From the NCBI GenBank assembly GCA_028700115.1, contig JAQVTI010000001.1, positions 150,001 through 182,000 on the forward strand: a stretch of 32,000 nt of DNA, read 5' to 3'. Position 1 is the stretch's first letter. Every line of letters begins with the position of its first letter. The DNA is from Candidatus Iainarchaeum sp. (lineage in GTDB: Archaea > Iainarchaeota > Iainarchaeia > Iainarchaeales > CSSED10-239). Position numbers and translations under genes: made by a program. Positions 3,858-28,863 of the stretch are shown piece by piece. The notes under the pieces are model-generated. The model ran no database searches, was not told where the DNA came from, and worked only from the letters and a program-made list of their open reading frames with translations.

Positions 3858-4163
3858 TTAAATTTTATATATTTGCACATGTGGCACTTTATTTAAAAAA
3901 ATTACTTGATCTTTATTAATTAAATTATTATTTATAAAAAAACCACAAGATTTTTTCCCAAAACAATTTACAGAATCACAATCTTTAAAAAAATCTAAAA
4001 CTTCTTTTTCAGAAATAATTTTTTCTCCAAAAAAAGAAGAAGATATCATAATTTCAAAATTTTTTAAAATAATTTTTGTATTAACTAAATTTGAATCACA
4101 AACAGCTAAGATTTTATTTTTTGAAAAATTATGTAATTTACCAATCATAATATTTGTTTCCAT
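3858..4163 (-). CDS. DUF424 family protein
   Basis: The pattern ILAVCD...FFGEK...VPHVQIYKI matches the conserved archaeal DUF424 layout (CDEELLGK...FYGG...PHAQ). It lies next to aIF2-beta, as in many archaea. Confidence 0.65.
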   Translation of the reverse strand: METNIMIGKLHNFSKNKILAVCDSNLVNTKIILKNFEIMISSSFFGEKIISEKEVLDFFKDCDSVNCFGKKSCGFFINNNLINKDQVIFLNKVPHVQIYKI

Positions 4164-13030: not shown

Positions 13031-13065
13031 AAATTATTTAAAAACAAATAAAATATATATAATTT

Positions 13066-13105
13066 TCTAAAAGTCAACTAATTAATTAGCAAACTAATTA
13101 AATAA
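13066..13105. promoter_or_regulatory. Motif TCTAAAAGTCAACTAATTAA... in the divergent promoter between the wHTH gene and the 208-aa gene; shared with 15194-15280
   Basis: TCTAAAAGTCAACTA occurs at about 13066, 15194 and 15227. ACTAATTAAATAATA is also shared with 15263-15280. Confidence 0.5.
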
Positions 13106-13174
13106 TATAGAATAATTTATAAATATAATAAACAATATTAATATATTATTTAAAAAAACAAAACAAGAGAAAAC

Positions 13175-13801
13175 ATGAAATTATTTAATAGAGTTAGAAA
13201 ACCTAAAAGAGAGACACCTCATAAGATAATAGAAAAAACATATAAAATAAATGAACTTGAAGCAGCTTTTACAAAAGAGAAAGGCAAAAACTCAAAATTA
13301 AAAGAAATAAATGCAGTTAGAAGAAAAGATTCAGGTAAATTTGTTTTAGGAGATATTAAAGATAAATTTTACCACACACATATTCTAGATAGTCTAAAAG
13401 AAAGAAATAAATTAATACCTAGTCCAGAAGACATAGTTACATCTAGTTTACTTAAAAGATATAAGAATGTAAAAAACAATGGTGTTTTTCTAATACACAA
13501 AGGTAAAGAAATTGGAAAAATACATTTTAGATTAAGTGATAAATTTATTAAAGATATTAGAGAAGGAACAGAGAGAGCAAGTAAGACTAATAAAGATATT
13601 AATAAGGTTGATTTTTTTAATGCATTTCTAAAACTAAGAATAAGTAATATTTATTCTTTTAATATTTTAAAAGATAAAATGACTTTAGAAAAACAAGTTA
13701 AGATAATTAATGAACTTAAAAAAGAAGGTATACAAATAAAATATAAAGCAATGCCTGGATATAAGTTTAATGAAAAAACTATGCTTTTTGAAAAAGCATA
13801 A
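13175..13801 (+). CDS. Hypothetical lysine-rich protein (208 aa)
   Basis: Intact ORF with an ATG start. I recognise no motif. Confidence 0.5.
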   Translation: MKLFNRVRKPKRETPHKIIEKTYKINELEAAFTKEKGKNSKLKEINAVRRKDSGKFVLGDIKDKFYHTHILDSLKERNKLIPSPEDIVTSSLLKRYKNVKNNGVFLIHKGKEIGKIHFRLSDKFIKDIREGTERASKTNKDINKVDFFNAFLKLRISNIYSFNILKDKMTLEKQVKIINELKKEGIQIKYKAMPGYKFNEKTMLFEKA

Positions 13802-13825
13802 AACTAATTTTATTTTTATAAAAAA
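13773..13825. repeat. About 53-bp direct repeat, copy 1: the last 8 codons plus the 3' flank of the 208-aa gene
   Basis: AAAAAACTATGCTTTTTGAAAAAGCATAAAACTAATTTTATTTTTATAAAAAA recurs at 15282..15335. It is identical apart from A-run lengths. Confidence 0.9.
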
Positions 13826-15159
13826 CTTTTTGGTTTTTCTAACATAGCTAAAAACATACATACAGGTATAACTAAATTATTATTTAGATTAATATCTGCA
13901 GGTGCAACTAAATTTTTTGAAAGCATAATATATTCATCAACATCTTCTATAAAATTAGGTTTTTTAAATTTATTTCTATATTTAACTTCAATTGCTTTAT
14001 TTTTAAAAACAAAATCAATTTCTTTTTGATCTACATTATAATATTTTAATTCTAAATTATAAATATTTTGTAAATGACTACCAACTGTATTTTCTACAAG
14101 CTTACCTAAAAAAGTATCATTAAATAAAAGAGATCTACTTTCTTCAAAAGAATCTAAATTATTTGAATAGTTTAATAAAGAATGAATAATAAAAGGATCT
14201 TTAATATAAAATTTCTTTAAAAGATCTCTTGCAGATTCTTTTATTTCAAAAATAATTAATAATTCTTTTAATTCATTTAAATATTTTTTAATAGTATCTA
14301 TAGAATAACCTGTTTTTTCACTAATAGTTGTATATTTTAAAGAACCAGTTAAAGATTCAATTAAAACTTTTAATATTTCAATAGATTTTGTTTTATCCAT
14401 TTTTTCAAATATTTTTTGAATAATATCTTCATAATATTTTTCAGAAATTGAATTATTTTTAAAATAAGAGTTTATAGTTTCTGGAAAACCACCTGTTAAT
14501 AAATAAATATTAAAATATTTATTAATTTCATCAAAATAAGATTCTATATTTAAAAATTTACTAAGTATATCTTCATTAGATAAATTTAAATTAATTTCAG
14601 ACTTAACTAAAAGGTTATATAAACTTAAATTATCAGTTTTAGTTATATTTAAAAGAAATTGCCTAAAAGTTAAAGAAGACATAACTTTTATTTCTTCAGA
14701 TCTTCCAATTAATGCTTGTTTACATTCTTCAATTTTTCTAGGATCAGAACCAGTAACTACTAAACAAATATCTTTTAATAAATTAGAATCTTTTAAAGCT
14801 TTTAAAAAGGCACAACTATTTTGTAAAGATTGAATCTCATCAAATAAAATAATTTTAATAGGATATAAATTAATTATTTTTTCCATTTGCCTAAATAGTT
14901 CTTTTTCTTTTAAATTTAATAAAATATCAAAATTAAAATAAATTACTTCCTTTGAATTAGTAGAATAAGCAATTTGTTTTAAATAAATTGTTTTTCCTAC
15001 TCTTCTAGGTCCTTTAATTAAATTTATAGTCCCAGGAGTAAGATTTATAGAATCTCTAGTTATAATATATTTATTTTTAGATAAATTATCTATATCTGGA
15101 TCTTTTTTTCCTGAAAACCAGGGATTTTGACTTAAAACAACATTCCAATCTAAAGGCAT
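13816..15159 (-). CDS. AAA+ ATPase of the COG1373 type (AAA_14 N-domain plus DUF4143, PD-(D/E)xK-like C-domain)
   Basis: NPWF near the N-terminus, Walker A GPRRVGKT, Walker B ILFDEIQ, GS...LTFRQF, LLTGGFPE, and a C-terminal E..(x)n..EIDFV...IEVK nuclease-like triad. Confidence 0.85.
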   Translation of the reverse strand: MPLDWNVVLSQNPWFSGKKDPDIDNLSKNKYIITRDSINLTPGTINLIKGPRRVGKTIYLKQIAYSTNSKEVIYFNFDILLNLKEKELFRQMEKIINLYPIKIILFDEIQSLQNSCAFLKALKDSNLLKDICLVVTGSDPRKIEECKQALIGRSEEIKVMSSLTFRQFLLNITKTDNLSLYNLLVKSEINLNLSNEDILSKFLNIESYFDEINKYFNIYLLTGGFPETINSYFKNNSISEKYYEDIIQKIFEKMDKTKSIEILKVLIESLTGSLKYTTISEKTGYSIDTIKKYLNELKELLIIFEIKESARDLLKKFYIKDPFIIHSLLNYSNNLDSFEESRSLLFNDTFLGKLVENTVGSHLQNIYNLELKYYNVDQKEIDFVFKNKAIEVKYRNKFKKPNFIEDVDEYIMLSKNLVAPADINLNNNLVIPVCMFLAMLEKPKSFL

Positions 15160-15193
15160 ATATTAATTATACACCTATAAGTTTATAAATTTA

Positions 15194-15280
15194 TCTAAAA
15201 GTCAACTAGTTAACTAGTTGAAATTATCTAAAAGTCAACTAATTAACTAATTAACTAATTAACTAATTAATTAAATAATA
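15194..15280. promoter_or_regulatory. Repeat-rich promoter region of ATPase 1: two TCTAAAAGTCAACTA motifs, a perfect 18-bp palindrome and an (AACTAATT)n run
   Basis: The palindrome CAACTAGTTAACTAGTTG is at 15203..15220. AACTAATT is repeated about 4 times at 15237..15268. On the minus strand, a TTTATAAAC TATA-like box and GGTG lie between the palindrome and the ATG at 15159. Confidence 0.55.
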
Positions 15281-15281
15281 A

Positions 15282-15335
15282 AAAAAACTATGCTTTTTGA
15301 AAAAGCATAAAACTAATTTTATTTTTATAAAAAAA
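15282..15335. repeat. About 53-bp direct repeat, copy 2 (orphan 3' end of the 208-aa gene)
   Basis: See 13773..13825. This copy has no gene body upstream of it. It is preceded directly by the promoter-like motif. Confidence 0.9.
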
Positions 15336-16013: not shown

Positions 16014-16736
16014 TTAATTAATTTTATTTAAAATAAACTTACAAATAAGTTTAAAATCTAATCTATATTTTTTTAAAATATAATGATTTGTTGAATTATT
16101 ATACAATTTTATTTTATAATCATCATTTATTATATTATTTAATTTATTAATAACTATAGATTTATCTTTTATTGGAAAATTATTATCTTTTAGTATAACA
16201 TAGATATCATAAATATCTTTACCTTCATCTCTATTTATAAAAGCTTTAATTTTTTGATAAAATAATTCTTCTAAACTATAAACATTAAAATAAGATATAT
16301 CAAAATCAACAAATCCAGGATAAATTATTTTTTTATTAATATCAGGCATATCTTTATTATTTAATCTAAATTCAAGCATAATTTTATCTTTTTGATTAAT
16401 CTCATTAATATACTGAATATCAAATCTAATTGTTTTATTCATGATTCTTGGTTTATTTACAATATAAGATTTCAAATATTTTTTTAAAATTAAATAAATA
16501 TCTTCTTTTAAAATATTTATTTCTTTTTTAGAAAAAATATCAAAATCAATATCTTCAGAAAATCTTTTAAATTTATTAAAATAAACTCTATTTAAAGAAG
16601 TTCCTCCTTTTAATATTATATTATCAAATTTATTCTCTAATAATTTAAATATTTTTGAAATTTCTTTATCTTTTATAATATAATTTGTAGATAATCCAGT
16701 ATCTAAACAAATTTTTCTAATAAGTTTTATATCCAT
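16014..16736 (-). CDS. AbiEii/AbiGii-family nucleotidyltransferase toxin (DUF1814), copy 1
   Basis: Signature ILKGGTSLNRVY....RFSEDIDFDI. The ATG at 16736 lies 4 nt after the AbiEi stop. The track start at 16757 is a TTG inside the upstream gene. Confidence 0.8.
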   Translation of the reverse strand: MDIKLIRKICLDTGLSTNYIIKDKEISKIFKLLENKFDNIILKGGTSLNRVYFNKFKRFSEDIDFDIFSKKEINILKEDIYLILKKYLKSYIVNKPRIMNKTIRFDIQYINEINQKDKIMLEFRLNNKDMPDINKKIIYPGFVDFDISYFNVYSLEELFYQKIKAFINRDEGKDIYDIYVILKDNNFPIKDKSIVINKLNNIINDDYKIKLYNNSTNHYILKKYRLDFKLICKFILNKIN

Positions 16737-16740
16737 TAAT

Positions 16741-17529
16741 TTAATACCACCAATCAATTATATTTTTTTCACCTAAATTATCTTTTAGTTTCCATTTATC
16801 TATATATTTTGATTTTTTATTATTTATATTTAATAAATAAGTATTAGATTTGTCTTGAGATAATAAATATTTTAAAAAATAATTAGGTATTTTTAAATTT
16901 GTATTTTTAAGTAAAATATCTAAAATATAGCCAGTAATTTGATTTTGTCTTTTACTAGAGTATTTTTTATAAATTAATAATAATTTATTCCAATTTATTT
17001 TATTTGAACCTAAATATATAGCTTTAGATAAAATAGAATAACTACCTATATATTTAAATTTATTAAAACAATCAAATATAGTTTTTTCTAAAGAAGAAAT
17101 ATAAATATTATCTATTCTTATAAAATCATTATAAAAATTAGTATTTATATATTTTAGATTATATTCATATAATTTAATATTTTTAGATTTTTTATTAGTA
17201 GAAATATATATGTTGAAAGGATGGTAATCTATTAAACCATAATAAAATAAAGCAGATGAAAAAGAAATATATCCAGGATATAAATTAGTTGCTATTTCAA
17301 AAAGATCATTTATTGAAAAAATATCTTTTTTAATATAATTATTTTTTTTAAGATTTAATAAATACCCTTTATCTTTTAATTGTTTTAATAAAAAATTAAT
17401 CTTATAATTAGAATAATCTTTAAAAGCAGATTTTAAATCATTGTTTTTTAATATATTATTCTTTTTTTTAGAATCTATATAGTTATACAAATAATTTTCA
17501 TTATTTGTTAATTGGTTATTTTTTTGCAT
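16741..17529 (-). CDS. AbiEi-like antitoxin / transcriptional regulator, copy 1
   Basis: It sits immediately upstream of AbiEii. The motifs LKDKGYLLNLKKNNY, YPGYISFSSALFYYGL, SLEKTIFDC and NQITGYILD follow the AbiEi (COG5340) pattern. Confidence 0.7.
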   Translation of the reverse strand: MQKNNQLTNNENYLYNYIDSKKKNNILKNNDLKSAFKDYSNYKINFLLKQLKDKGYLLNLKKNNYIKKDIFSINDLFEIATNLYPGYISFSSALFYYGLIDYHPFNIYISTNKKSKNIKLYEYNLKYINTNFYNDFIRIDNIYISSLEKTIFDCFNKFKYIGSYSILSKAIYLGSNKINWNKLLLIYKKYSSKRQNQITGYILDILLKNTNLKIPNYFLKYLLSQDKSNTYLLNINNKKSKYIDKWKLKDNLGEKNIIDWWY

Positions 17530-20299: not shown

Positions 20300-20662
20300 T
20301 TTTTTTTTATATAAAGACTGAACCTGTGTAAATTAATTTTAAGTTAACAAAAAAACAAAGTTAGCTTATAAAACAGATTCGCCAAAGTAACGTTCATAGT
20401 TTACACTCATGTTACTGTAAGATATTAAAGAAAGAATATATTTAAAAAGGTAAGTTTTTTGGAAAGAAAACAAAAGGTTTATAAAGAAATATGCCTCATA
20501 AAAATTGTTTTCCAAACCATAAAAAAACCTTATTTTAGACATATAATAATAAATTATATTTGTTTATATATAATATATATTAAATATATAATATTTTAAA
20601 ATATAATCTATTGAATAAAAAAAGAACAAAAAAGAACTAAAAAGAAAATATCTAAAAAAAAA

Positions 20663-21198
20663 TTATTTATCTAGATAAATATCTAGATACATAGGCAAGG
20701 CACCTTTATCTCTTTCTTTTAATATTTTAAATTTAAATTTTTTATAAAAATGAATAGAATCTTTACTTTTGTCCTTATTTCTTTTTACATCTAAAATTAA
20801 AAATCTACAACCACAAATACTAGATAACTTTTTAGCTACACTATAAGAAATTTCAAGTAACATTGTTCCAAAGCCCATTCTTGAAAAATCATCATCAACT
20901 GCAAGTCTACCTATCTTTAATGCAGGAATTGCTTTATATTTAACATTTTTTTAAGAAAAAAAGTCTTTAAAGGTTTAGTTAAATTTAAAGAATCAGTTAA
21001 TAAAGTAACATAACATACTAAATTATCTTTATAAAATAATAAATAAGTAGTAGATATTTTTTGTTTTTAATTACTTAAAGCATCATCTACTAAAAAATCT
21101 TTCAAATCTTTCTCATAGGTTTTAAAATTAGTAATAATATCTTTGTCAGTTTTTAAAATAGGTCTAATTTTAATATATTTTAAATTTATTTTTTCCAT
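20663..21198 (-). pseudogene. GNAT-family acetyltransferase (TacT/KacT-like toxin type), disrupted
   Basis: From the ATG at 21198 the reading is MEKINL...DFLVDDALSN, then an in-frame TAA at 21067-21069. It continues KQKISTTYLLFYKDNLVCYVTLL...FFLKK. A frame change follows in the A/T run near 20945-20960. It then reads KAIPALKIGRLAVDDDFSRMGFGTMLL...FYKKFKF, the acetyl-CoA-binding core. The ORF track reports only the last 71 aa. Confidence 0.7.
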
Positions 21199-21353
21199 AA
21201 TTGACTTTCATAAAAAGATCTGTTCTTTTCTGCATTTTTAATAAATGCAACTCTTTCTTTAGAAGGATGCTTTAACTCTTTAGCCCATCCTTTAATAAAC
21301 TTATCAGCATCATCCCCTCTTAATACAGGAGTTGCTCTAATTAGTTTAGCCAT
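21186..21353 (-). CDS. Small ORF (55 aa) coupled to the GNAT gene; candidate cognate antitoxin
   Basis: MAKLIRATPVLRGDDADKFIKGWAKELKHPSKERVAFIKNAEKNRSFYESQLWKK. Its stop overlaps the GNAT ATG by 13 nt (ATGGAAAAAATAA). It is below the ORF-track size cut-off. Confidence 0.45.
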   Translation of the reverse strand: MAKLIRATPVLRGDDADKFIKGWAKELKHPSKERVAFIKNAEKNRSFYESQLWKK

Positions 21354-21506
21354 ATTTATCACATTTATATAATATATATGTATTTATTAAAACAATTTAT
21401 AAGTATTTGTATTACAAATAAAAAAAGAACAAAAAAGAAAGAGAAATAGAATATAAATTTTTAAAAAAAAGAAAATAAAAAAACAGTTTTTAATATTTTA
21501 AAAAAA

Positions 21507-24386
21507 CTATCTCCTTCCACCACTAACTGCATCTTCTATTGTCCAATTAAAATTATTTATAATATAGTCTTTTGCAGTAAGTCCATCTCCAGAAGGAGTA
21601 CTATTTCCTGCATCAAAAGATACATTTGATTGTAAAGGCAATTTACTCCAACTAATTAATAAAGAATTATAATTTGAAGAAGATAAAGAAGTAATTGAAA
21701 ACATATTTCCCATATCTGTTACATTAGAAACATTCCAAGAAGCTAAATTTTGATCGAAAACCTCATTATTACAAAACATATAATACATATTATTTACATT
21801 TGAAACATCCCAATTATTTAAAGGTTGATTAAATGAACTTGCACCATTAAACATATCACTCATATCAGTTACATTTGAAACATCCCAATTATTTAAAGGT
21901 TGATTAAAAGCACGCACCCTACAAAATACACCACTCATATCTGTTATTGAAGATGTATTCCAATCATTTATATAACTATTAAAATCAGTATTATTTGTAA
22001 ACATACCTTTTATTGAAGTTATATTAGATAAATCCCAATAATTAATATTAGGTATACCAGTCAAATATCCTCCACAACCTTCAAACATATATTCTAAAGA
22101 AGTTGTTCTATTTAATTTTAAAATATCTTCAGCTGTAACACTTAAATTAGAACAACCTCTAAATTGTGAATCTGTAACTCCAAGATCAAGATTACCCCAT
22201 TTTGAAATATCACTAATTTTTAATCTATCTCCAGAATCATTAAAAGACCAACCTTCTAATTCTCCAAAAATATTTAAATCATACACTCCATAAGAATCAT
22301 AAGTATGAGGTAAATCCGAATCATCCCAAGAAGTTATTTGTGAAGTTGTTCCATCATCCCATTCTACAGTGAAATCATAATTACCATCAGAAACTAAAGG
22401 TAACATAATTTGATTATATTCACTAGATCCAGTAGAAGTTTTTGTAGTATCCCAAGTTGAAATAAAATAATTACTTTCACAATCTGTTGGACAACTATCT
22501 GAATTTTCTGAAGAATATGAACAAATACCATCTCCACAACTTCCACAATCTGCATAACAAGAACTTACAGTTTCATAAACAGTACAGAAACCATCTCCAC
22601 AAACACTACAATCTTGAGGACATGTATCTAAATTTTCATCAGAAGAAGTACAAATTCCATCTCCACAACTACCACAATCTATATAACAAGTATCTATATT
22701 TTCATCCCCATTACAAGATTCATCTCCACATTCAGGAGGACCTGGAACAATACCTAAATCTTCTAGATACCAACCTAAATCATTTACTAAATAATTATAA
22801 GCATCATCTGCTTCTGCAGTATGATATAGATTAATATTACTAACACCAACACCTAAAGCAATATTAGGATTATCAGCCCAATCAATTAATGTATTTGAAT
22901 AATTTTCTACAGACATAGATGTAGGTATATTATAATCAACATCAGATAAAAAACCATATAAACAATCCATATTTGCTAAATTCCAATCGCCTATATCTTG
23001 ATCAAAACTAGATCCTTCAAATAAAGCTACAGCAGCATATAAATTTGAAACATCCCAACTTGAAATATCTTGATTAAAATCTGAAAAAAAGAAAGTATAT
23101 CTCACCTTTTCAACATTTGAAACATCCCAAGAAGAAATATCTTGATTAAAAGGAACTTTTCTAACAGAAGAAAAATCAACAAGTTCAGATAACCATTCAG
23201 GATATTCAAATAACAAACTAATCTGTGTTTTTCCAAATGTATTTGATAAATCTAAAATATTAGAAGTATCCCAATTTTCTATATTTGGAATATCTACTAA
23301 AGAAAAACAATCTGCAAATGAAGCGGTTAAATAAGTTGTATTTTCTAAAATATCTAAACTATCTTCAGCAGTAATTGTTAAATTTTCACAACCAGTAAAA
23401 TGCCCATATGAATTTGAATCAATAGAATCTAATTTTAATGGTCCCCAATTAGATATATTTAATATTTTTAATCTATCTTTACTTAAATGAACATTATCAT
23501 AAATACAAAAATCCAAACCATTTATTTCTTCAAAATTATAATCAGCAAAAGACCAGCCTTCTATTGTTCCATTAATATTTATTTCGTATTCTCCAGATAA
23601 AGAATAAGTATGTAATTTATCAGAATCATCATATGAAGTTATTTCTGAAGTAGTCCCATCTCCCCAATCTACAGTAAAATCATAATTACCATTTGGAACT
23701 AATGGAAGCTCTATTTGGTCATCATCACTTGAATAACCATATTCTATTAAACTTTCCATTTCAAAATCCATATAGTAATTTATAGATGTATTATTTGTAT
23801 CCCATGTAGAAGTAAAATAATTAATATGACAATCATCATAACAAGTTTCTTCAGTTTCAGAACCATTACAAGTTCCATCTCCACAATAAGGTGCATTATC
23901 ACATGAAACAAGACTTGCTCCTAAATAACTTACAGGAATAGAAATATATTTACCATCATTAGTTTTTAATTCTAAAATAAATTCTTTTGAAGGAATACAT
24001 ATTATATCTAATTGATTACTTCTATTTGGATTAATAACTAAAGGAGTTTCTAAAGTATATTCTGTGTTTATAAAATTTGTATTTTCTGCGGTTGTAGAAA
24101 TTAATTTATATGCAACAACATTTAAATCTTTATTAAAATTGTTATTTTCTAAAACAACTTTAGAATAATCCCCAGACATACTTTCATAAACACTTAAACA
24201 TTTTATAAACCCATCTAAATCTGATTTATCATAAGTAACTACAGAAGATTCATCTAGATTAGATATAGTAAAATCTTTTGAAAAAGAAACAATTCCTGCA
24301 ATTAAAACAACTGAAACTAAAACAATTAAAACAGTTGCAATTAATGGAGAAATTGCTTTTTTATTAAAAATATATTTTGAATTCAT
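21507..24386 (-). CDS. Large surface adhesin-like protein: class III signal peptide, shared N-module, two DUF285/BspA-like repeat domains joined by tandem Cys-rich modules
   Basis: N-terminus MNSKYIFNKKA/ISPLIATVLIVLV. There are two blocks of WDVSN(V)xxMxxMF..FNQ(D/P)(I/L) repeats. Each block is preceded by a TWDT...NYDFTV(D/E)WGDGTTS segment. Confidence 0.85.
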   Translation of the reverse strand: MNSKYIFNKKAISPLIATVLIVLVSVVLIAGIVSFSKDFTISNLDESSVVTYDKSDLDGFIKCLSVYESMSGDYSKVVLENNNFNKDLNVVAYKLISTTAENTNFINTEYTLETPLVINPNRSNQLDIICIPSKEFILELKTNDGKYISIPVSYLGASLVSCDNAPYCGDGTCNGSETEETCYDDCHINYFTSTWDTNNTSINYYMDFEMESLIEYGYSSDDDQIELPLVPNGNYDFTVDWGDGTTSEITSYDDSDKLHTYSLSGEYEININGTIEGWSFADYNFEEINGLDFCIYDNVHLSKDRLKILNISNWGPLKLDSIDSNSYGHFTGCENLTITAEDSLDILENTTYLTASFADCFSLVDIPNIENWDTSNILDLSNTFGKTQISLLFEYPEWLSELVDFSSVRKVPFNQDISSWDVSNVEKVRYTFFFSDFNQDISSWDVSNLYAAVALFEGSSFDQDIGDWNLANMDCLYGFLSDVDYNIPTSMSVENYSNTLIDWADNPNIALGVGVSNINLYHTAEADDAYNYLVNDLGWYLEDLGIVPGPPECGDESCNGDENIDTCYIDCGSCGDGICTSSDENLDTCPQDCSVCGDGFCTVYETVSSCYADCGSCGDGICSYSSENSDSCPTDCESNYFISTWDTTKTSTGSSEYNQIMLPLVSDGNYDFTVEWDDGTTSQITSWDDSDLPHTYDSYGVYDLNIFGELEGWSFNDSGDRLKISDISKWGNLDLGVTDSQFRGCSNLSVTAEDILKLNRTTSLEYMFEGCGGYLTGIPNINYWDLSNITSIKGMFTNNTDFNSYINDWNTSSITDMSGVFCRVRAFNQPLNNWDVSNVTDMSDMFNGASSFNQPLNNWDVSNVNNMYYMFCNNEVFDQNLASWNVSNVTDMGNMFSITSLSSSNYNSLLISWSKLPLQSNVSFDAGNSTPSGDGLTAKDYIINNFNWTIEDAVSGGRR
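22480..22733 (-). repeat. Five tandem Cys-rich modules CGD(G/E)xCxxxExxxxCxxDC within the adhesin
   Basis: The translation reads ECGDESCNGDENIDTCYIDC GSCGDGICTSSDENLDTCPQDC SVCGDGFCTVYETVSSCYADC GSCGDGICSYSSENSDSCPTDC. The periodic DNA also produces the spurious + strand ORF at 22487..22834. Confidence 0.8.
23863..24364. repeat. 502-bp segment about 99 % identical to 1576..2077
   Basis: See 1576..2077. Confidence 0.9.
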
Positions 24387-24480
24387 ATTATTATATACAT
24401 AGATTTTATTTAAAAAGATTTAGTTAAACCTTTTATTGCCAAACAAATTTTTATAAATAAATAAAATAAATTACTATAAA

Positions 24481-24767
24481 AAAAGGAAAGAAAACTATTT
24501 CTTTCCTGTTATATGGTTTAACTCTTGTTTTAATTTAAAAATCATATCAGCATAACCATGAGTCATATCAACTATTGTAAATAAACTTTCTTGAAGATCA
24601 GAAATTGGAACATTTAGTTTCTCTGGTTTAATTACATCTATTGAAGTTACACCATAGTAATAAACTAATCTAAATAAAGACTGTAAATCCTTACAAGAAA
24701 CTTCAGCTTCAATATATGTTGAAAACAAACCATCATGAACTACAATTTCTGCAATCTTTGATTCATA
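24481..24767. repeat. 287-bp direct repeat, copy 1 (about 97 % identical to 26543..26829)
   Basis: The two copies align at a constant offset of 2062 bp, with about 9 mismatches by eye. The repeat covers 14 bp of 3' flank plus the last ~90 codons of the 217-aa gene. Confidence 0.9.
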
Positions 24768-24803
24768 CAATATAGATTTAACTAATTTTTTAGAAAATAT
24801 CAA
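24495..24803 (-). pseudogene. 3' fragment duplicating the C-terminal ~90 aa of the 26557..27210 gene
   Basis: ESKIAEIVVHDGLFSTYIEAEVSCKDLQ...KLKQELNHITGKK differs from the full-length copy at 3 residues. The ORF opens only through a TTG and 13 unrelated codons. Confidence 0.75.
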
Positions 24804-24842
24804 CTATTGTTTTTAATTAACATTTTATAAAATAAGATAAAT

Positions 24843-25730
24843 TTATTTAATTAAAATACTTTTTTTAAGTAAATACAAATATTTATCTAAAACATCTTTT
24901 AAAATAAGATCAGATCTTAAAACCACTTCTAAAGAAGATAAATTCACATTATTTAATTCTAATTTAGAAATATATTTAAAAAAATCATCTATTTTAAAAG
25001 CATTTTTATTATATTCTAAACTTTCATTTATTTTTAATAAAACTAAATCTAAAAATAAAGGATCAATTTTAACTAAATCTTTACTTAAAATATACCCAAT
25101 ATCAAAAATATCTCTTAAAGCTAAAAAAGGTCTTGTAACTAAAGCTCTATACTTCTCACTTAAATTTTCTCTAATGTCTATACATTCTATCTTAGAAACA
25201 TCATCTAAAATAGCATCATTTAATTTATCATAAAATAAATGATTTATAGTTTTTATTTTAGTATCTAAATAAAGTTTATGCCTAAAAGACACATCTATTT
25301 TTATTTGTTGTAAATCTTCAGATAATAAAGATTTATATTTTGCATAAACAACTAAGTTAATAATTCTACCATTTTGAGTAATTATTTTCCAACCTTTCCC
25401 TAACTCATCACTTACTACTAACCCACATTTTAAGCATAATTTATTTATTTCAGACCTTATTTTTTCAGATTTTAATTTTAAAGCTCTATTTGTTAAATTA
25501 TTTAAATCCTCATTAAAAATAAAATCTAAATCTTCACTTAATCTATAAAATCCTAAATAACATTTATTTAAACAAGTACCACCTTTAAAAATAAGATTAT
25601 CAATTTTATTATTAGAAAGTTCAATTAAAAATTTTGTTAAAAAATAATCTTTTTCTAATAATAGTGAATTAAATTTTTCTCTATTAGAAACTTCAAGTAT
25701 TAAATTTTTTAAATTAACTTTATCTTCCAT
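24843..25730 (-). CDS. AbiEii/AbiGii-family nucleotidyltransferase toxin (DUF1814), copy 2
   Basis: Signature LIFKGGTCLNKCY....RLSEDLDFIF. The ATG at 25730 overlaps the upstream AbiEi gene by 22 nt. Confidence 0.8.
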   Translation of the reverse strand: MEDKVNLKNLILEVSNREKFNSLLLEKDYFLTKFLIELSNNKIDNLIFKGGTCLNKCYLGFYRLSEDLDFIFNEDLNNLTNRALKLKSEKIRSEINKLCLKCGLVVSDELGKGWKIITQNGRIINLVVYAKYKSLLSEDLQQIKIDVSFRHKLYLDTKIKTINHLFYDKLNDAILDDVSKIECIDIRENLSEKYRALVTRPFLALRDIFDIGYILSKDLVKIDPLFLDLVLLKINESLEYNKNAFKIDDFFKYISKLELNNVNLSSLEVVLRSDLILKDVLDKYLYLLKKSILIK

Positions 25731-26464
25731 TTAATATACCTCAAATCTAAATTAGTATTTCTTATTTTTGTATAATATCTAAACTTATTTAATTTATTTA
25801 AATAATCATACAATTTTTCATTTTCTGTAATTATACCAATTAATTTTAGTAATTTTATAGAATTTATTTTTTTTGCATATTTAATAAGTTTATTTTCATC
25901 AAATTTATCTTTATTTTTTTTAAAAATATAAATTAAATGATCTAATGAATCAACATATTTAAAATAATTTAAAGAATCTATAATAGTTTTTTCGATATCA
26001 GAAAAAGGACATTTATTTTTAAACACACCAAATAAATTAGACTTATTTATTTTAATATAATGTATATTAAAATCTAATATTTTTTTTGTTAAATTATACT
26101 TAGTATTAAATACAAATAATTTATTAGGAATTTGAGTTATAAAACCATATTTATTTAAAGCATTAATTAAACCAATATAATATTTGTTTGAATTTAAATA
26201 AAATTCATTAATTTCAAATTCAGAAACAACTGGCTTTCTATCTATAGAAGATACTGGAATATAAATATAATTATCTTTTTTAATAGAAATTAAATATTTC
26301 TGAAATAATAAATATTTAATAAATCTATTTGGATTGTTTGAATCTATATTTTTTATAATAATATCTAATAATTCATTTTTAGAAATAAAATGTATTTTTT
26401 TATATTCTAAAATAGAAATTAACTTCTTGGTCAAATTATTAGAAAAGTTGGATTTATTAACCAT
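25709..26464 (-). CDS. AbiEi-like antitoxin / regulator, copy 2
   Basis: Located upstream of AbiEii-2 and overlapping it. The pattern YIGLINALNKYGFITQIP...DIEKTIIDSL...LLKLIGIITE follows the AbiEi layout. The ATG is at 26464; the track uses a TTG at 26482. Confidence 0.65.
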   Translation of the reverse strand: MVNKSNFSNNLTKKLISILEYKKIHFISKNELLDIIIKNIDSNNPNRFIKYLLFQKYLISIKKDNYIYIPVSSIDRKPVVSEFEINEFYLNSNKYYIGLINALNKYGFITQIPNKLFVFNTKYNLTKKILDFNIHYIKINKSNLFGVFKNKCPFSDIEKTIIDSLNYFKYVDSLDHLIYIFKKNKDKFDENKLIKYAKKINSIKLLKLIGIITENEKLYDYLNKLNKFRYYTKIRNTNLDLRYIKWKIKLI

Positions 26465-26542
26465 ATGTATTATTTTGACCAAAAACTATTTAAAAGATAT
26501 TATTTTTAAAAATAAAGACCTATTTAGAAAAACAGAAAAAAG

Positions 26543-26829
26543 AAAAGAAAAGAAAACTATTTCTTTCCTGTTATGTAGTTTAACTCTTGTTTTAATTTAA
26601 AAATCATATCAGCATAACCATGAGTCATATCAACTATTGTAAATAAACTCTCTTGAAGATCAGAAATTGGTATGTTTAGTTTCTCTGGTCTAATTACATC
26701 TATTGAAGTTACACCATAGTAATAAACTAATCTAAATAAAGACTGTAAATCTTTACAAGAAACTTCAGCTTCAATATATGTTGAAAACAAACCATCATGA
26801 ACTACAATTTCTGCAATCTTTGATTCATA
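26543..26829. repeat. 287-bp direct repeat, copy 2
   Basis: See 24481..24767. Confidence 0.9.
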
Positions 26830-27210
26830 TACTAAAAACTTTTTATCAGATTTTAGTCTTTCTAAAATCTTATTCATTGCATCTTCTAAAGTTGCTTTAT
26901 TATCTCCTTTAGACTCAATCATAATACTTACTTTAATTAAGTTTTTATCAGATTCAGAAATTGACTTTCTTGAATCTAACTTTTCTGCAATTTCTTTTGA
27001 AATAGAATACTTTGCAGGAAAGCCTTCTCTTTTTATAAGTTTTAATACAAGCATATTTTTTAGAGTTGCAGTTAAATCTTCATAACTTGCATCTTTAAAT
27101 TCTTTTTTAAGTTCTTCATCAGTTTTTGGAGACTTATAAATAGATTTTGCAATTTCTTTTCTTAAATCAAGAATTCTTTTTTGTTTGTCTACATCTACAT
27201 TTTCAGTCAT
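26557..27210 (-). CDS. Hypothetical protein (217 aa); N-terminal region possibly wHTH-like, C-terminal alpha/beta domain
   Basis: Intact ORF with an ATG start and a TAG stop. I do not recognise the family. Its 3' third is duplicated at 24495..24767. Confidence 0.5.
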   Translation of the reverse strand: MTENVDVDKQKRILDLRKEIAKSIYKSPKTDEELKKEFKDASYEDLTATLKNMLVLKLIKREGFPAKYSISKEIAEKLDSRKSISESDKNLIKVSIMIESKGDNKATLEDAMNKILERLKSDKKFLVYESKIAEIVVHDGLFSTYIEAEVSCKDLQSLFRLVYYYGVTSIDVIRPEKLNIPISDLQESLFTIVDMTHGYADMIFKLKQELNYITGKK

Positions 27211-27410
27211 AAATTTTCACATTTTATAATTATCTTAAATATTTACACATCTATAAATATATATTAGTTAAGAAACATATAAAAAAGAAAGGTTACTAAG
27301 AAATTAATTTAATTAATCAATAAAATCATCTCTAGAAAGTCTTAAAACATCAAAAGATTTATTTAAAATATAAATTACCTAACAGAACATAGATTTAATA
27401 ATTTAAAAAA

Positions 27411-27572
27411 ATGAAAATGGATAAAAAAGAAGTAATTTATCCATTAAAATGGATAAAAAACACTAAAAAAGCATTTAAAACCACAAAAATGGATAAAAAT
27501 AAGCTTATTTATCCATTAAAATGGATAAACTTAAAAAGACAACTATATATAATATATATAAAACTAAAATAA
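27411..27572 (+). CDS. Possible small ORF (53 aa) with an internal duplication MDKxxxIYPLKWI; an alternative reading of the repeat array
   Basis: The ATG at 27411 and TAA at 27570-27572 are in frame across both repeat units. No Shine-Dalgarno was seen. Coding status is doubtful. Confidence 0.25.
   Translation: MKMDKKEVIYPLKWIKNTKKAFKTTKMDKNKLIYPLKWINLKRQLYIIYIKLK
27414..27557. repeat. 72-bp tandem duplication (x2); each unit carries AAAATGGATAAA, then TTTATCCATT, then AAAATGGATAAA
   Basis: Direct sites lie at 27414, 27446, 27486 and 27518. Inverted sites lie at 27436 and 27508. All three site types recur with a 72-bp period. The array lies 20-165 bp upstream of ATPase 2, whose own start (AAATATGGATAAT) resembles the motif. 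Confidence 0.85.
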
Positions 27573-27579
27573 GATAAAT

Positions 27580-28863
27580 ATGGATAATTATAATTATATA
27601 CTTAAATCTGAAAGAAAAAAAGAAAAACTATTAGATGAAATTAAAAATTATAATGAAAGAAACATAGTTACAGAAATCAGAGAAGAAATTAAACTTTATA
27701 AAAATAAAAAAAATAAAAGAATATTCTTATTTTATGGACTTAGAGGGATTGGAAAATCAACTGCATTATTACAAATTATAAAAGAAAATAAAGATGCAAT
27801 GTATATTGATGGTACAGAAATATCTTATTATAATCTAGAACTTATAAAAGTTATAGAAGAATACAAAAAAATAAATAAATCAAATATATTAATTATAGAT
27901 GAATTAAATGATATACCTAATTGGGGAAAAGCACTTAAAATATTATATGATTCTGAGAATTTAAAAATAATTGCAACAGGATCTTCGGCAATAAAAATAT
28001 CACAAGAAATAAAAGAAATAATTAGAAGATCTAAAATAAAAAAACTGCAAGCTTTAAGTTTTAAAGAATTTTTAAAATTAAAATACAATATAGAATACAA
28101 TATCACAAATGAAATTAAAGATATATTATTTTCAAAAAAAGAAGACGCATTTATAAAAATTAAAAATTTAAATTTAGATATACTTAAAAAAAATCAAGAT
28201 ATTGAAAAACATTTCAGAGAATACATATATGAAGGCATACCTTTAATGATTAACACAGGGGAAAAAATACAAGACATATCTCAAAATATAATTTATAAAA
28301 TAATAGTAGATGATTTTAAAAATATTACAGGATTTAATATTAAAACTATAGATAAATCTAAAAAAATTATTAGAGCAATTGCAGAAGCAAAACCAGGACA
28401 CACTTCTTTTAAAAATTTAAGTGATAACTTCGATATATCCGCAACTACAATTTCTGAAATTATAAATGCATTTAAAATATCTGAATTAATTATAGAAACT
28501 TATGTTAATAAAAAATCAATGGCAAAATACAGAAAAGAACCTAAAATTTTATTTAGCTCTTCAGCAATAAGATATGGATTATTATTAAATAATTTTGATG
28601 AAACAGATATTGGAACACTTAGAGAAGATGCTTTTGTTTCAAATATAATATATAGTGGATTAAATGTAAATTATATTGCAGAAAATAAAAAAACACCTGA
28701 TTTTGAAATAAGTGATGACAAAAATAAAGTTATTGTAGAAATAGGTGGACAAAATAAAAAAACTAAACAGATCAAAAAAGGTTTTATAATTACAGAAAGT
28801 AATAAAATAGATATTATAAACAATGTGATATACATGCCTTTATACATGGTTTGTTTAATATAA
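27580..28863 (+). CDS. AAA+ ATPase, COG1373-like (second, divergent copy) with a nuclease-like C-terminus
   Basis: Walker A GLRGIGKST, Walker B LIIDELNDIPNW, ATGSS, ALSFKEFL, and C-terminal E..x..PDFEI...VVEIG. Confidence 0.8.
   Translation: MDNYNYILKSERKKEKLLDEIKNYNERNIVTEIREEIKLYKNKKNKRIFLFYGLRGIGKSTALLQIIKENKDAMYIDGTEISYYNLELIKVIEEYKKINKSNILIIDELNDIPNWGKALKILYDSENLKIIATGSSAIKISQEIKEIIRRSKIKKLQALSFKEFLKLKYNIEYNITNEIKDILFSKKEDAFIKIKNLNLDILKKNQDIEKHFREYIYEGIPLMINTGEKIQDISQNIIYKIIVDDFKNITGFNIKTIDKSKKIIRAIAEAKPGHTSFKNLSDNFDISATTISEIINAFKISELIIETYVNKKSMAKYRKEPKILFSSSAIRYGLLLNNFDETDIGTLREDAFVSNIIYSGLNVNYIAENKKTPDFEISDDKNKVIVEIGGQNKKTKQIKKGFIITESNKIDIINNVIYMPLYMVCLI

Follow-up and report, generated by a model that had tools for sequence, protein, structure and literature searches.

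A predicted AbiE toxin-antitoxin cassette between duplicated ends of a conserved host gene in a DPANN archaeon, and the recurrence of this footprint on other DPANN contigs

We analyzed a 32-kb stretch of Candidatus Iainarchaeum sp. DNA (contig JAQVTI010000001.1, positions 150,001 to 182,000; hereafter the window) and found a two-gene cassette, predicted to encode an AbiE toxin-antitoxin pair, lying between 290-bp direct repeats that duplicate the 3' end of the conserved neighboring gene. Such a footprint with no recombinase was previously described solely for bacterial restriction-modification (RM) genes; here it surrounds a toxin-antitoxin cassette in archaea. The features of the locus, read along the minus strand, together with a second footprint in the same window, are as follows.

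26557-27210, minus strand: intact 217-aa MJ0538-family gene (PF27325), conserved and single-copy
26540-26829, minus strand: direct repeat copy 1, spanning the final 90 codons and the TAG of the intact MJ0538-family gene and about 17 nt beyond it
26465-26539, minus strand: left cassette end, 75 nt of leader that include the cassette's own TATA-like box TTTAAATAG (26486-26494)
25709-26482, minus strand: AbiEi-like antitoxin/regulator, 251 aa from an ATG at 26464 or 257 aa from a TTG at 26482
24843-25730, minus strand: predicted AbiEii nucleotidyltransferase toxin, 295 aa, with an intact KGGTCLNK...RLSEDLDF motif
24768-24842, minus strand: right end of the cassette, 75 nt from the AbiEii stop to the orphan repeat, with no conserved motif and no hairpin
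24478-24767, minus strand: direct repeat copy 2, a 3' piece of MJ0538 left as an orphan, which retains the reading frame and is annotated in GenBank as a 102-aa ORF (24495-24803)
20613-24477, minus strand: rest of the lineage-specific island, from the orphan to the S-layer gene, absent from the sister lineage
13773-15334, delimited by sequence repeats: second footprint, an AAA_14/DUF4143 ATPase gene (13816-15159, minus strand) between 53-bp direct repeats

The two repeat copies (24478-24767 and 26540-26829) are 290 bp each, lie 2062 bp apart from start to start, and differ by 10 mismatches and no gaps (96.55% identity) in the MAFFT alignment, self-blastn and repeat search. An earlier note on this DNA had placed them at 24481-24767 and 26543-26829, which is the same feature, and the order it had given, namely intact gene, AbiEi, AbiEii and orphan fragment, was recovered by ORF and domain searches. 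On the minus strand, the repeat begins at about codon 127 of the 217-aa gene (Y-E-S-K-I-A...) and includes the TAG stop, at 26557-26559 in the intact gene and 24495-24497 in the orphan. Homology then fades 8-17 nt past the stop in a T-rich tract, with mismatches 9 and 15 nt after it. Only three amino-acid differences (K/R, V/I and H/Y) separate the copies; the earlier note had cited the same three in arguing that this was not a fresh duplication, and on this point it was correct. The repeat has no third copy in the window and is otherwise unique there. Elsewhere in the window, direct repeats of like length occur only between the two DUF285 paralogues and as the 53-bp pair, and a chance origin of the 290-bp repeats was rejected on this ground.

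Both junctions were also found outside the contig under study. Contig JAQUYT010000012.1 from NCBI carries the same arrangement and the same 10 differences, with 99.7% identity overall, and a 1870-bp Logan contig from SRR22315503 (L096), detected in two samples, matches window positions 24738-26607 at 100% identity and spans both novel junctions. The structure is thus real and not an assembly artifact, with two MAGs and an independent Logan contig sharing both junctions. We also considered whether the Logan contig was a circular form and rejected this, because it just ends inside the repeats, at points that seem consistent with a short-k-mer assembly graph.

Homologues of the 217-aa gene numbered 49 (49-97% identity), all belonging to PF27325, and the gene order RtcB, MJ0043_C protein, BofA-like protein, MJ0538 and S-layer protein is kept in six relatives (L001, L003-L005, L094 and L095). 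In the sister lineage, represented by three assemblies (L001, L094 and L095) in which the gene is about 94% identical, MJ0538 is followed directly by the S-layer gene. These assemblies have one repeat copy and no AbiE, and they also lack the 3.9 kb past the orphan, comprising the DUF285 gene and more; the duplicated arrangement, which the earlier note had envisaged might be common to all relatives, is therefore not. The MJ0538 and S-layer neighborhood is present as well in three relatives of about 60% identity (L003-L005), where the gap holds other cassettes: L003 has a pair of wHTH and nucleotidyltransferase-like genes there, and L005 has an AAA_14-like gene. Judged by gene order, the adjacency of MJ0538 and the S-layer gene appears to be ancestral. 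Because the sister lineage has the two genes directly side by side, the whole interval is evidently an insertion hotspot. No orphan MJ0538 fragments were found in L003-L005, and MJ0538 is not a universal target. Among the relatives compared, we found no donor, no circle and no AbiE-only empty site (MJ0538, one repeat, DUF285). Homology between the flank past the repeat and the ancestral MJ0538-S-layer spacer was considered and rejected (p = 0.14 for the intact flank and 0.99 for the orphan flank), and the T-rich similarity of the flank reported by BLAST reflects low complexity.

The 1.77-kb interval between the repeats consists solely of a promoter, AbiEi and AbiEii, and its G+C content is 16.4%, compared with 25.7% for MJ0538. 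AbiEii matched Pfam PF08843 at 2.4e-22 (80.5 bits, where the cut-off is 22.5) and the PADLOC AbiEii model at 1.3e-31, and the KGGTCLNK...SEDLDF columns are invariant across an alignment of 40 relatives. AbiEi was recognized by the PADLOC model PDLC02267 (2.2e-27, residues 19-224), and its assignment comes from the PADLOC library alone, with no AbiEi match in Pfam or NCBIfam; NCBIfam also returned nothing for the 217-aa gene, for AbiEii or for the small island ORFs. The pair resembles AbiE systems in being an antitoxin-first bicistron, with a 22-nt overlap of the AbiEi stop and AbiEii start (25709-25730) and a single TATA-like box upstream, in its intact AbiEii DUF1814 motifs, and in an AbiEi-like partner of typical length. 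It differs from typical AbiE in an AbiEi too divergent for Pfam and NCBIfam, in its archaeal host, and in that its activity is predicted. By family, gene order and overlap, the pair is classified as a putative AbiE toxin-antitoxin system, with toxicity, neutralization and abortive infection assumed from the family. The window has another AbiE pair, and the gene next to that pair showed no homology to the 217-aa gene.

As the earlier note had stated, no integrase or transposase lies between the repeats, and domain searches revealed no integrase, transposase or IntI in the 32-kb window, which also contains no tRNA gene. None of the 25 longest inverted repeats forms terminal inverted repeats of the cassette. 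When the ends of seven cassettes were compared by eye, no shared end motif was seen except the promoter box TTTAAATAG, which is conserved upstream of AbiEi at unrelated loci; the right ends of these cassettes lie 5-216 nt from the stop and have no common sequence. Attachment-site-like (attC-like) folding was sought in single-strand DNA folds, and cassette borders and repeats were no stabler than shuffles (z = -0.16, +0.97, -0.16 and +1.33). Regarding a viral vector, close AbiEii relatives were absent from IMG/VR viral contigs, where the relatives found were 28-29% identical, the best of them 29%.

To place this locus in a wider context, we surveyed AbiE pairs on other DPANN contigs, drawn from 80 of 444 AbiE matches. 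Direct repeats tightly bracketed 8 of the 42 dereplicated pairs versus 11 of 1504 control intervals (0.7%; Fisher p = 9e-9), and such repeats also enclosed 3-4 of the 7 AAA_14/DUF4143 genes, including one in this window. The repeats are locus-specific, 50-680 bp long and copied from adjacent host genes, and those of different loci share no sequence, related contigs excepted. Duplicated gene ends elsewhere come from a Csa3-like regulator, an M16 peptidase, a radC-like gene and others, and in the five clearest cases one repeat edge lies 0-17 nt past the stop of the intact gene facing the cassette. At at least five independent loci, the same minimal unit of a promoter and two genes occurs with different host genes, with repeats of 70-290 bp and with the cassette in either orientation. 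No integrase was found beside the other bracketed cassettes at the loci examined. The nearest relatives of the window cassette (60% amino-acid identity) lie between 187-223-bp repeats of a different gene, and the closest AbiE relative (P0051 on contig L006) has no flanking repeats, indicating that the footprint is frequent and not obligatory. Repeat-bracketed cassettes are scattered across the AbiEii tree. Repeat identity forms a continuum across loci, from 100% (53 bp in this window and 98 bp in L073) down to 82%, with some bracketing repeats elsewhere showing only 82-89% identity over 70-146 bp. Arrays of alternating repeats and cassettes were found in L021 and L028, the latter combining AbiE, ATPase_2/DUF234, PIN+UPF0175 and AAA_14 cassettes with a repeated element of about 120 nt.

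We further analyzed the substitutions between the two copies. The pN/pS between copies is 0.15 at this locus and 0.06-0.42 at the others, even where the orphan contains stops or frameshifts. The pooled pN/pS of 0.20 was tested against in-situ neutral decay of the orphan, giving p = 5e-4, or p = 0.06 when the synonymous opportunity was inflated 1.4-fold to allow for mutational bias; this locus alone, with 5 synonymous versus 3 non-synonymous changes (p of about 0.09), is weak evidence. Because the copies differ mostly at synonymous sites, the pattern suggests that two functional alleles were brought together. With three outgroups, the derived changes in the window fall 4:4 on the intact and the orphan copy and alternate along the repeat. 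The site-by-site pattern is intact, orphan, three times intact and three times orphan, the ancestral state being assigned to the intact copy at the 1st and 3rd-5th sites and to the orphan at the 2nd and 6th-8th. Based on few independent sites, this hints at the reciprocal hybrid copies of a Campbell-type event but is no clean single-crossover mosaic. Both copies have the same outgroup identity (94.1-94.5%), and they are each other's closest relatives with respect to the sister lineage. A hybrid intact gene was not apparent, the 5' and 3' halves being equally diverged from the outgroup (93.9% versus 94.1-94.5%).

The account that we favor, whose chances we consider about even, is insertion-duplication by homologous recombination with a related strain's allele, with the insert retained through addiction. 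A strict long target duplication, in which the cassette alone inserted at a staggered break or via MMBIR-like template switching, the recipient's 290 bp were copied and the copies then diverged by 3.4% in place, is in our judgment unlikely. In its favor, the architecture is that of the RM cases of Furuta et al. 2010 (PMC2853133), the continuum of repeat identities from 100% to 82% is expected of events differing in age, the window copies are closest to each other relative to the sister lineage, and the perfect 53- and 98-bp repeats are equally compatible with it. Long in-situ divergence even fits better the repeats of 82-89% identity over 70-146 bp, which would be a poor substrate for homologous recombination. 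However, a neutral orphan should gain about three times the changes of a constrained gene, mostly non-synonymous, whereas the observed division is 4:4 at a pN/pS of 0.15; the pooled substitution test also speaks against in-place decay, less so under its conservative correction, and no enzyme of the cassette is known to cut DNA. Prophages such as e14 and phage 21 in icd insert at a gene's 3' end and bring a substitute for it, and they and tRNA-gene integrases leave the order seen here, an intact gene, an element and a displaced orphan 3' fragment with a few substitutions. An integrative element at the MJ0538 3' end, as a remnant or acting in trans with the repeats as attL/attR, would account for this order and for differing copies, if one of them arrived with the element. 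We nevertheless regard it as improbable. Integration of this kind depends on a defined core site and on an integrase of the tyrosine or serine type. Both are absent here, and no integrase occurs in the cassette, in the window or beside the other bracketed cassettes examined.

The earlier note had listed a remnant of a larger element, mobilization in trans and homologous recombination through the neighboring gene as its three options, and the last is the best supported, although not in the form of a dedicated MJ0538 "landing pad", since other genes are duplicated elsewhere. A remnant is disfavored because the minimal unit recurs, never accompanied by an integrase, at no fewer than five independent loci that differ in host gene and repeat length and carry it in either orientation. 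Mobilization by a site-specific enzyme in trans is disfavored by the lack of a shared end motif, the locus-specific host repeats and the lack of an attC-like fold, and the absence of close AbiEii relatives from IMG/VR likewise weighs against an integrative element; the attL/attR analogy is a resemblance only. An integron-type gene cassette (CALIN) is barely conceivable. Integrons and attC arrays with many toxin-antitoxin cassettes have been reported in DPANN archaea, CALINs occur in archaea and 10.5% of their annotated cassette proteins are toxin-antitoxin proteins (PMC9668308), and related contigs such as L028 hold arrays of small toxin-antitoxin and ATPase cassettes with a repeated element of about 120 nt. 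However, the repeated element is host-gene coding sequence (pN/pS 0.06-0.15) rather than an imperfect palindrome, the border and repeat folds were no stabler than shuffles (z from -0.16 to +1.33), the R''/R' core pair was not seen in a partial visual check of the L028 repeat, the only one so inspected, and no IntI lies in the window. It is also very improbable that the gene end was duplicated in tandem long ago and fixed, with AbiE landing there later, or that the structure is a metagenome assembly chimera. The sequence is MAG-derived only, and repeats diverged by 3% can mislead assemblers, but both junctions are identical to the base in three independent assemblies, among them the Logan contig that crosses both, and a de Bruijn-type chimera would need reads linking the AbiEii 3' flank to mid-MJ0538. 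A single copy is present in the sister lineage and in more distant relatives, and the same footprint occurs around the same kind of cargo far above chance.

Under the insertion-duplication that we favor, the AbiE pair would be a self-contained addiction cassette, made up of a promoter and two genes with no mobility machinery, in the variable MJ0538-S-layer interval. The incoming DNA would come from the same species-level population and would carry a second MJ0538 3'-end allele, about 3% diverged, beside its cargo. Joining would rely on the cell's own recombination, with MJ0538 providing homology at one end and an illegitimate junction, or one already in place, closing the other, and the product would be an intact functional MJ0538, then the cassette, then the orphan 3' fragment. 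Two orders of events can be envisaged. AbiE and the gene fragment may have entered as a circularized piece by a single crossover of the Campbell type; or AbiE may have been resident first, so that replacement by an incoming segment of MJ0538 3' end and DUF285 island would have been lethal and only stacked recombinants would have survived. Repeats of 290 bp would ordinarily recombine and remove the insert, but loss of the cassette would be expected to release the AbiEii toxin. The bias to 3' ends could arise if, with intergenic space nearly absent from the genome, an insertion survives only when it leaves one gene copy intact.

RM gene complexes with no mobility genes have been found inserted between long repeats, as an insertion with long target duplication (Nobusato et al. 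2000, Gene 259:99; PMC2853133). In these cases the identity of the left and right repeats (e.g., 417/423) exceeds their identity to the empty site, flanking repeats are significantly commoner than for average genes, and a life cycle with amplification or release via the repeats has been proposed, with no archaeal case surviving the 2010 screen (PMC2853133). Our locus is similar in combining a selfish pair, post-segregationally killing for RM and presumed to be so here, and no mobility gene with long, locus-specific direct repeats (30 to >400 bp for RM), which often overlap the 3' end of a neighboring gene. Related genomes have one copy, although those of the sister lineage also lack the 3.9 kb past the orphan. 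In terms of the Kobayashi group's criteria, the unit is shorter than 20 kb (1.77 kb), has a complete gene set and no mobility gene, and lies between repeats longer than 30 bp. Unlike the RM cases, the cargo consists of a type IV toxin-antitoxin/abortive-infection pair and AAA_14/DUF4143 ATPases; because it is not RM, the role proposed for restriction-made double-strand breaks cannot apply. The hosts here are DPANN archaea, the substitutions hint at separate functional alleles, and multi-cassette arrays occur in which the same gene fragment separates the cassettes.

Homology-facilitated illegitimate recombination and insertion-duplication were reportedly described in naturally transformable bacteria by de Vries and Wackernagel in 2002 and by Prudhomme and colleagues in 2002. 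In Campbell-type insertion-duplication, foreign DNA is likewise trapped by a homologous anchor, and a crossover with a circle leaves one copy that completes the gene and one orphan; unlike our case, it was defined in the laboratory in bacteria. To our knowledge, it has not been recognized as a natural, recurrent route for defense or toxin-antitoxin cassettes, nor in DPANN archaea at all, and we know of no characterization of DNA uptake and recombination in DPANN archaea. Chromosomal addiction modules resist allelic replacement, such that replacement by homologous recombination kills and survivors keep the module via rearrangement or duplication (PMC3874152, citing Handa 2001; Sadykov et al. 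2003). This behavior, demonstrated for RM in E. coli and B. subtilis, would explain both stacked cassettes and retained repeat-flanked inserts.

The movement of toxin-antitoxin and defense cassettes that lack a recombinase is a long-standing loose end, and the long target duplication of RM genes has no established mechanism. The same footprint now appears with another class of addiction module, in another domain of life and around roughly one in five cassettes, and the sequence evidence bears on the mechanism by suggesting two alleles rather than one duplicated target. A broader proposal, which we offer tentatively as possible but somewhat doubtful, is that DPANN archaea, in which few mobile elements are recognizable, acquire and stack small addiction or defense cassettes (AbiE, PIN/UPF0175, AAA_14/DUF4143) recombinase-free: a cassette that travels with a piece of a conserved host gene, or is caught next to one, would enter by homologous recombination just past the stop of that gene, could then be neither deleted nor replaced since its loss would be lethal, and the synonymous bias would reflect two alleles rather than a target duplication. 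The finding offers a simple account of defense and toxin-antitoxin islands and arrays beside conserved genes in ultra-small streamlined genomes. If the proposal is true, the life cycle put forward for RM systems would have its first example in archaea and its first among toxin-antitoxin modules, and the arrays would be integron-like, with orphan host-gene ends as their "recombination sites". In practice, an orphan gene-end fragment beyond a small cassette may serve as a signature of recent gene gain in MAGs. The individual locus is modest, a typical AbiE pair whose mechanism of arrival we infer.

Within the window itself, the second footprint is bounded by perfect repeats (13773-13825 and 15282-15334), which copy the end of a 208-aa gene (13175-13801), from its final 9 codons through the stop to 24 nt beyond. 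The remainder of the island beyond the orphan encodes a DUF285 surface protein of 959 aa (21507-24386) along with small ORFs (20663-21362), which possibly include a degraded GNAT toxin/antitoxin pair.

The main new result of this analysis is a recurrent footprint around AbiE cassettes (pairs of AbiEi and AbiEii toxin-antitoxin genes), in which the cassette lies between direct repeats copied from the end of an adjacent host gene; the window holds one clear, recombinase-free instance. The window is chromosomal, archaeal and very AT-rich (23% G+C), and its genes include those for MCM, RPA, RtcB, eIF-1A, eIF-2beta, RIO kinase and an S-layer protein. Proteins identical to those encoded here are listed in GenBank under 'Candidatus ainarchaeum sp.'; the organism is a DPANN archaeon belonging to the Iainarchaeota. 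The two repeat copies, at 26540-26829 and 24478-24767, align without gaps over 290 bp and differ at 10 positions. All factual statements of an earlier note on this DNA were borne out, including the repeat copies, here 290 bp, and the gene order.

Features of the cassette locus and of a second bracketed gene in the window
26557-27210, minus strand: intact MJ0538-family gene, 217 aa, PF27325
Between MJ0538 and AbiEi, minus strand: 75-nt leader with a TATA-like box
26464/26482-25709, minus strand: AbiEi
25730-24843, minus strand: AbiEii
From AbiEii to the orphan, minus strand: 75-nt spacer
3' of the spacer, minus strand: orphan, an in-frame copy of the 3'-terminal 90 codons of the 217-aa gene
Past the orphan, in order in minus-strand reading: 959-aa DUF285 surface protein, small ORFs, S-layer gene, second unrelated AbiE pair
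13816-15159, minus strand: AAA_14/DUF4143 ATPase gene, bracketed by perfect 53-bp repeats (13773-13825 = 15282-15334)

The repeat-cassette-repeat structure is real. The NCBI contig JAQUYT010000012.1 matches the window across 9.6 kb and has the same structure and all 10 repeat differences; because its identity is only 99.7%, it represents a separate assembly or strain. A Logan contig of 1870 bp (SRR22315503), found in two samples, reproduces window 24738-26607 with 100% identity and spans both novel junctions of the cassette.

The nearest relatives of the window AbiEii (60% amino acid identity) belong to another organism, recovered from four samples (L007, L008, L009 and L011). Their cassette lies between direct repeats of 187-223 bp that are 95-97% identical and copy the final ~70 codons, together with 10 nt of flanking sequence, of a convergent gene other than MJ0538, which encodes a Csa3-like regulator. 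The orphan copy is invariant over the four samples, and the intact 3' end occurs as two alleles with three differing sites, one allele being the same as the orphan at all three. A 142-nt copy (88%) of the cassette 5' end, made up of the leader and the opening 50-65 nt of AbiEi, is also present in L007, 3 kb off between unrelated genes (951-1092 versus 3920-4061), and may be a relic of another cassette.

We added 80 further AbiE loci from metagenomes and screened all loci by self-blastn for direct repeats ≥40 bp in length and ≥80% identical that end no more than 400 bp from each end of the gene pair. Bracketed pairs were found at 8 of 42 dereplicated loci (44 loci with sufficient flank before dereplication), compared with 11 of 1504 control intervals of equal length from the same loci (0.7%; Fisher p = 9e-9). 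Five cases are clear, namely the window (290 bp), the L007 group (187-223 bp), L028 (122 bp), L051 (132 bp) and L066 (140 bp), and three are short or weak (L018, L046 and L085). In all five clear cases, the 3' end of the intact gene points toward the cassette, one repeat edge falls 0-17 nt beyond that gene's stop codon and the orphan sits past the other end of the cassette, with either cassette orientation possible. The repeats of different loci are unrelated in sequence, and they are host DNA rather than element ends. Across the AbiEii tree, bracketed cassettes are dispersed, and the events are therefore independent.

Looser geometries were also seen: an entire radC-like gene (681 bp) is duplicated in L017, L021 reads repeat-AbiE-repeat-AbiE'-repeat, and two AbiE pairs are enclosed by repeats in L088. 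The near-identical contigs L088 and L090 (1940-4134 versus 2968-2985) differ by a 2.16-kb block holding an additional AbiE pair and a 146-bp 5' fragment, ~10% diverged, of a putative glycosyltransferase gene (N-terminal motif ILMLNYEFPPLGGG). An 18-nt ribosome-binding-site-ATG motif is common to the two edges of the block, and the difference arose either by deletion between short repeats or by insertion at the start codon.

Most of the bracketed control intervals contained the footprint around single AAA_14/DUF4143 ATPase genes. Three of seven unique AAA_14 genes were strictly bracketed, and L073 was additionally so in a looser sense, with perfect 98-bp repeats. At the window gene 13816-15159, the 53-bp repeats take in the final 9 codons of a 208-aa gene (13175-13801), its stop and the 24 nt that follow. 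These repeats contain a hairpin with a 9-bp stem; directly inside the right one, 15204-15267 is a 78% copy of 13043-13106, upstream of the 208-aa gene, and is followed by tandem TAACTAAT units. L028 (1-7180) is an integron-like array with an orphan gene end as spacer, in which five copies of one ~120-nt gene end (...GDVIITLG*), 85-93% identical, separate an AbiE pair, an ATPase_2/DUF234 gene, a PIN and UPF0175 pair, an AAA_14 gene and another UPF0175 gene. Sequence shared by copies 2 and 4 extends a further 20 nt to the left, and that shared by copies 3 and 5 a further 20 nt to the right.

The 217-aa gene belongs to a 90%-identity protein cluster with two additional members, which lie on three sister-lineage contigs, L001, L094 (183 kb) and L095, where MJ0538 has ~94% nucleotide identity to the window gene. 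All three read RtcB, MJ0043_C protein, BofA-like, MJ0538, 334 bp and S-layer gene. Compared with these contigs, the window carries two gains: ~5.9 kb on the downstream side of MJ0538, comprising AbiE, the orphan, DUF285 and the small ORFs, and a 1.5-kb AAA_14 ATPase gene on the upstream side. The same gene order is kept in relatives of ~60% identity (L003-L005), and MJ0538 and the S-layer gene were therefore ancestrally adjacent. The gap between them is only ~650 bp in L004, holds a wHTH protein and nucleotidyltransferase-like pair in L003 (6715-8279; called by eye, with weak NCBIfam matches only) and an AAA_14-like gene in L005 (6621-7862; 25% identity, tblastn), with no flanking repeats around the L003 or L005 cargo. 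Because its content varies in this way, the spacer is an insertion hotspot; the AbiE pair in the window is ordinary, and the site is a variable spot. The exact pre-AbiE site (MJ0538, one repeat, DUF285) was not found among the relatives examined.

Other readings of the locus were rejected. Against an integrase element, the window lacks genes for integrases, transposases and tRNAs, and none was found beside the other cassettes examined. The cassettes share no end motif besides their own promoter box TTTAAATAG (window 26486-26494), and their right ends lie 5-216 nt past the AbiEii stop codon. Integrons and CALINs rich in toxin-antitoxin cassettes are known in archaea (PMC9668308); here, borders and repeats fold no better than shuffled sequence, and the repeats are coding sequence. 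No close relative of the window AbiEii was found in viral contigs, and as far as can be seen the cassette is not virus-borne.

Two explanations then remain. The duplication may be a true long target duplication, in which both copies come from the recipient and diverged in place, or an insertion-duplication by homologous recombination, in which the gene-end allele of a related strain was set beside the resident one. Divergence in place predicts that the orphan evolves neutrally and faster than the gene. The window copies are equally distant from outgroups, and their derived changes, judged against three concordant outgroups, number four in the intact gene and four in the orphan, interleaved. 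They differ by five synonymous and three conservative non-synonymous changes (pN/pS 0.15), and over five independent loci pN/pS is 0.20, despite a stop or frameshift in some orphans. The pooled synonymous excess rejects simple in-situ decay (p = 5e-4), weakening to p = 0.06 when synonymous opportunity is raised 1.4-fold to allow for mutational bias; for the window by itself, p = 0.09. This substitution pattern favors homologous recombination, to which we give about an even chance, over duplication of the recipient's own sequence, which we consider rather unlikely. Of the origins proposed in the earlier note (a remnant of a larger element, mobilization in trans, or homologous recombination via the neighboring gene), the last is the best; the interpretation as a whole is partly supported.

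Under homologous recombination, two orders of events fit equally. AbiE and a gene fragment may have entered together by a single crossover of a circularized piece. Alternatively, AbiE may have been resident and an incoming fragment carrying the MJ0538 3' end and DUF285 unable to replace it; replacement of the addiction module would kill the recombinant, so that both were stacked. For chromosomal restriction-modification (RM) systems, replacement has been shown to kill the recombinant (PMC3874152, citing Handa 2001). Addiction would explain, under either order, why an insert flanked by 290-bp repeats is kept, and also the build-up of cassette arrays, and selection in a genome with almost no spacer would account for the invariable use of a gene end as the duplicated piece.

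The closest precedent is the "insertion with long target duplication" of RM gene complexes (Nobusato 2000; Furuta 2010, PMC2853133), for which restriction breaks are the suspected mechanism and no archaeal cases survived the 2010 screen (PMC2853133). The architecture is the same, flanking repeats are statistically enriched in both, and mobility genes are absent from the RM cases and the present cassettes alike. In contrast to the RM cases, the cargo here consists of AbiE pairs and AAA_14/DUF4143 ATPases and the hosts are DPANN archaea; the frequency of about one in five, the arrays and the hint that the repeats are two alleles are also new. We know of no DNA-cleaving activity in either kind of cargo. 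Among the titles and abstracts searched, no description of the footprint was found for AbiE or for DPANN.

Several further features of the window were recorded. The AAA_14 gene upstream of MJ0538 (27580-28863; PADLOC PDC-S01, 6e-27) is an insertion between the BofA-like gene and MJ0538 (27308-28839) without long flanking repeats. Upstream of it lie two 57-nt repeats (27401-27457 and 27473-27529), each containing a palindrome, AATGGATAAA...TTTATCCATT, that is possibly an operator. The second AbiE pair (16014-17529; AbiEi 31% identical, 14% G+C) is unrelated to the first; the S-layer gene is on one side of it and a 191-aa gene on the other, and no repeats flank it. Between the DUF285 and S-layer genes (20663-21362) are small ORFs of 58, 43 and 71/83 aa, the last with a weak precomputed Acetyltransf_7 match; the sister lineage lacks these ORFs, which may represent a GNAT-toxin/antitoxin pair that has degraded. 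The DUF285 genes at 822-2180 and 21507-24386 share 300 bp at 99% identity (1567-1866 versus 23854-24153) and are 66-86% similar elsewhere (see also 1258-1548 versus 22195-22485), a pattern suggestive of recent gene conversion between these paralogues, which lie 22 kb from each other. The 959-aa DUF285 protein has internal repeats of 63-75 nt and 1.3 kb.
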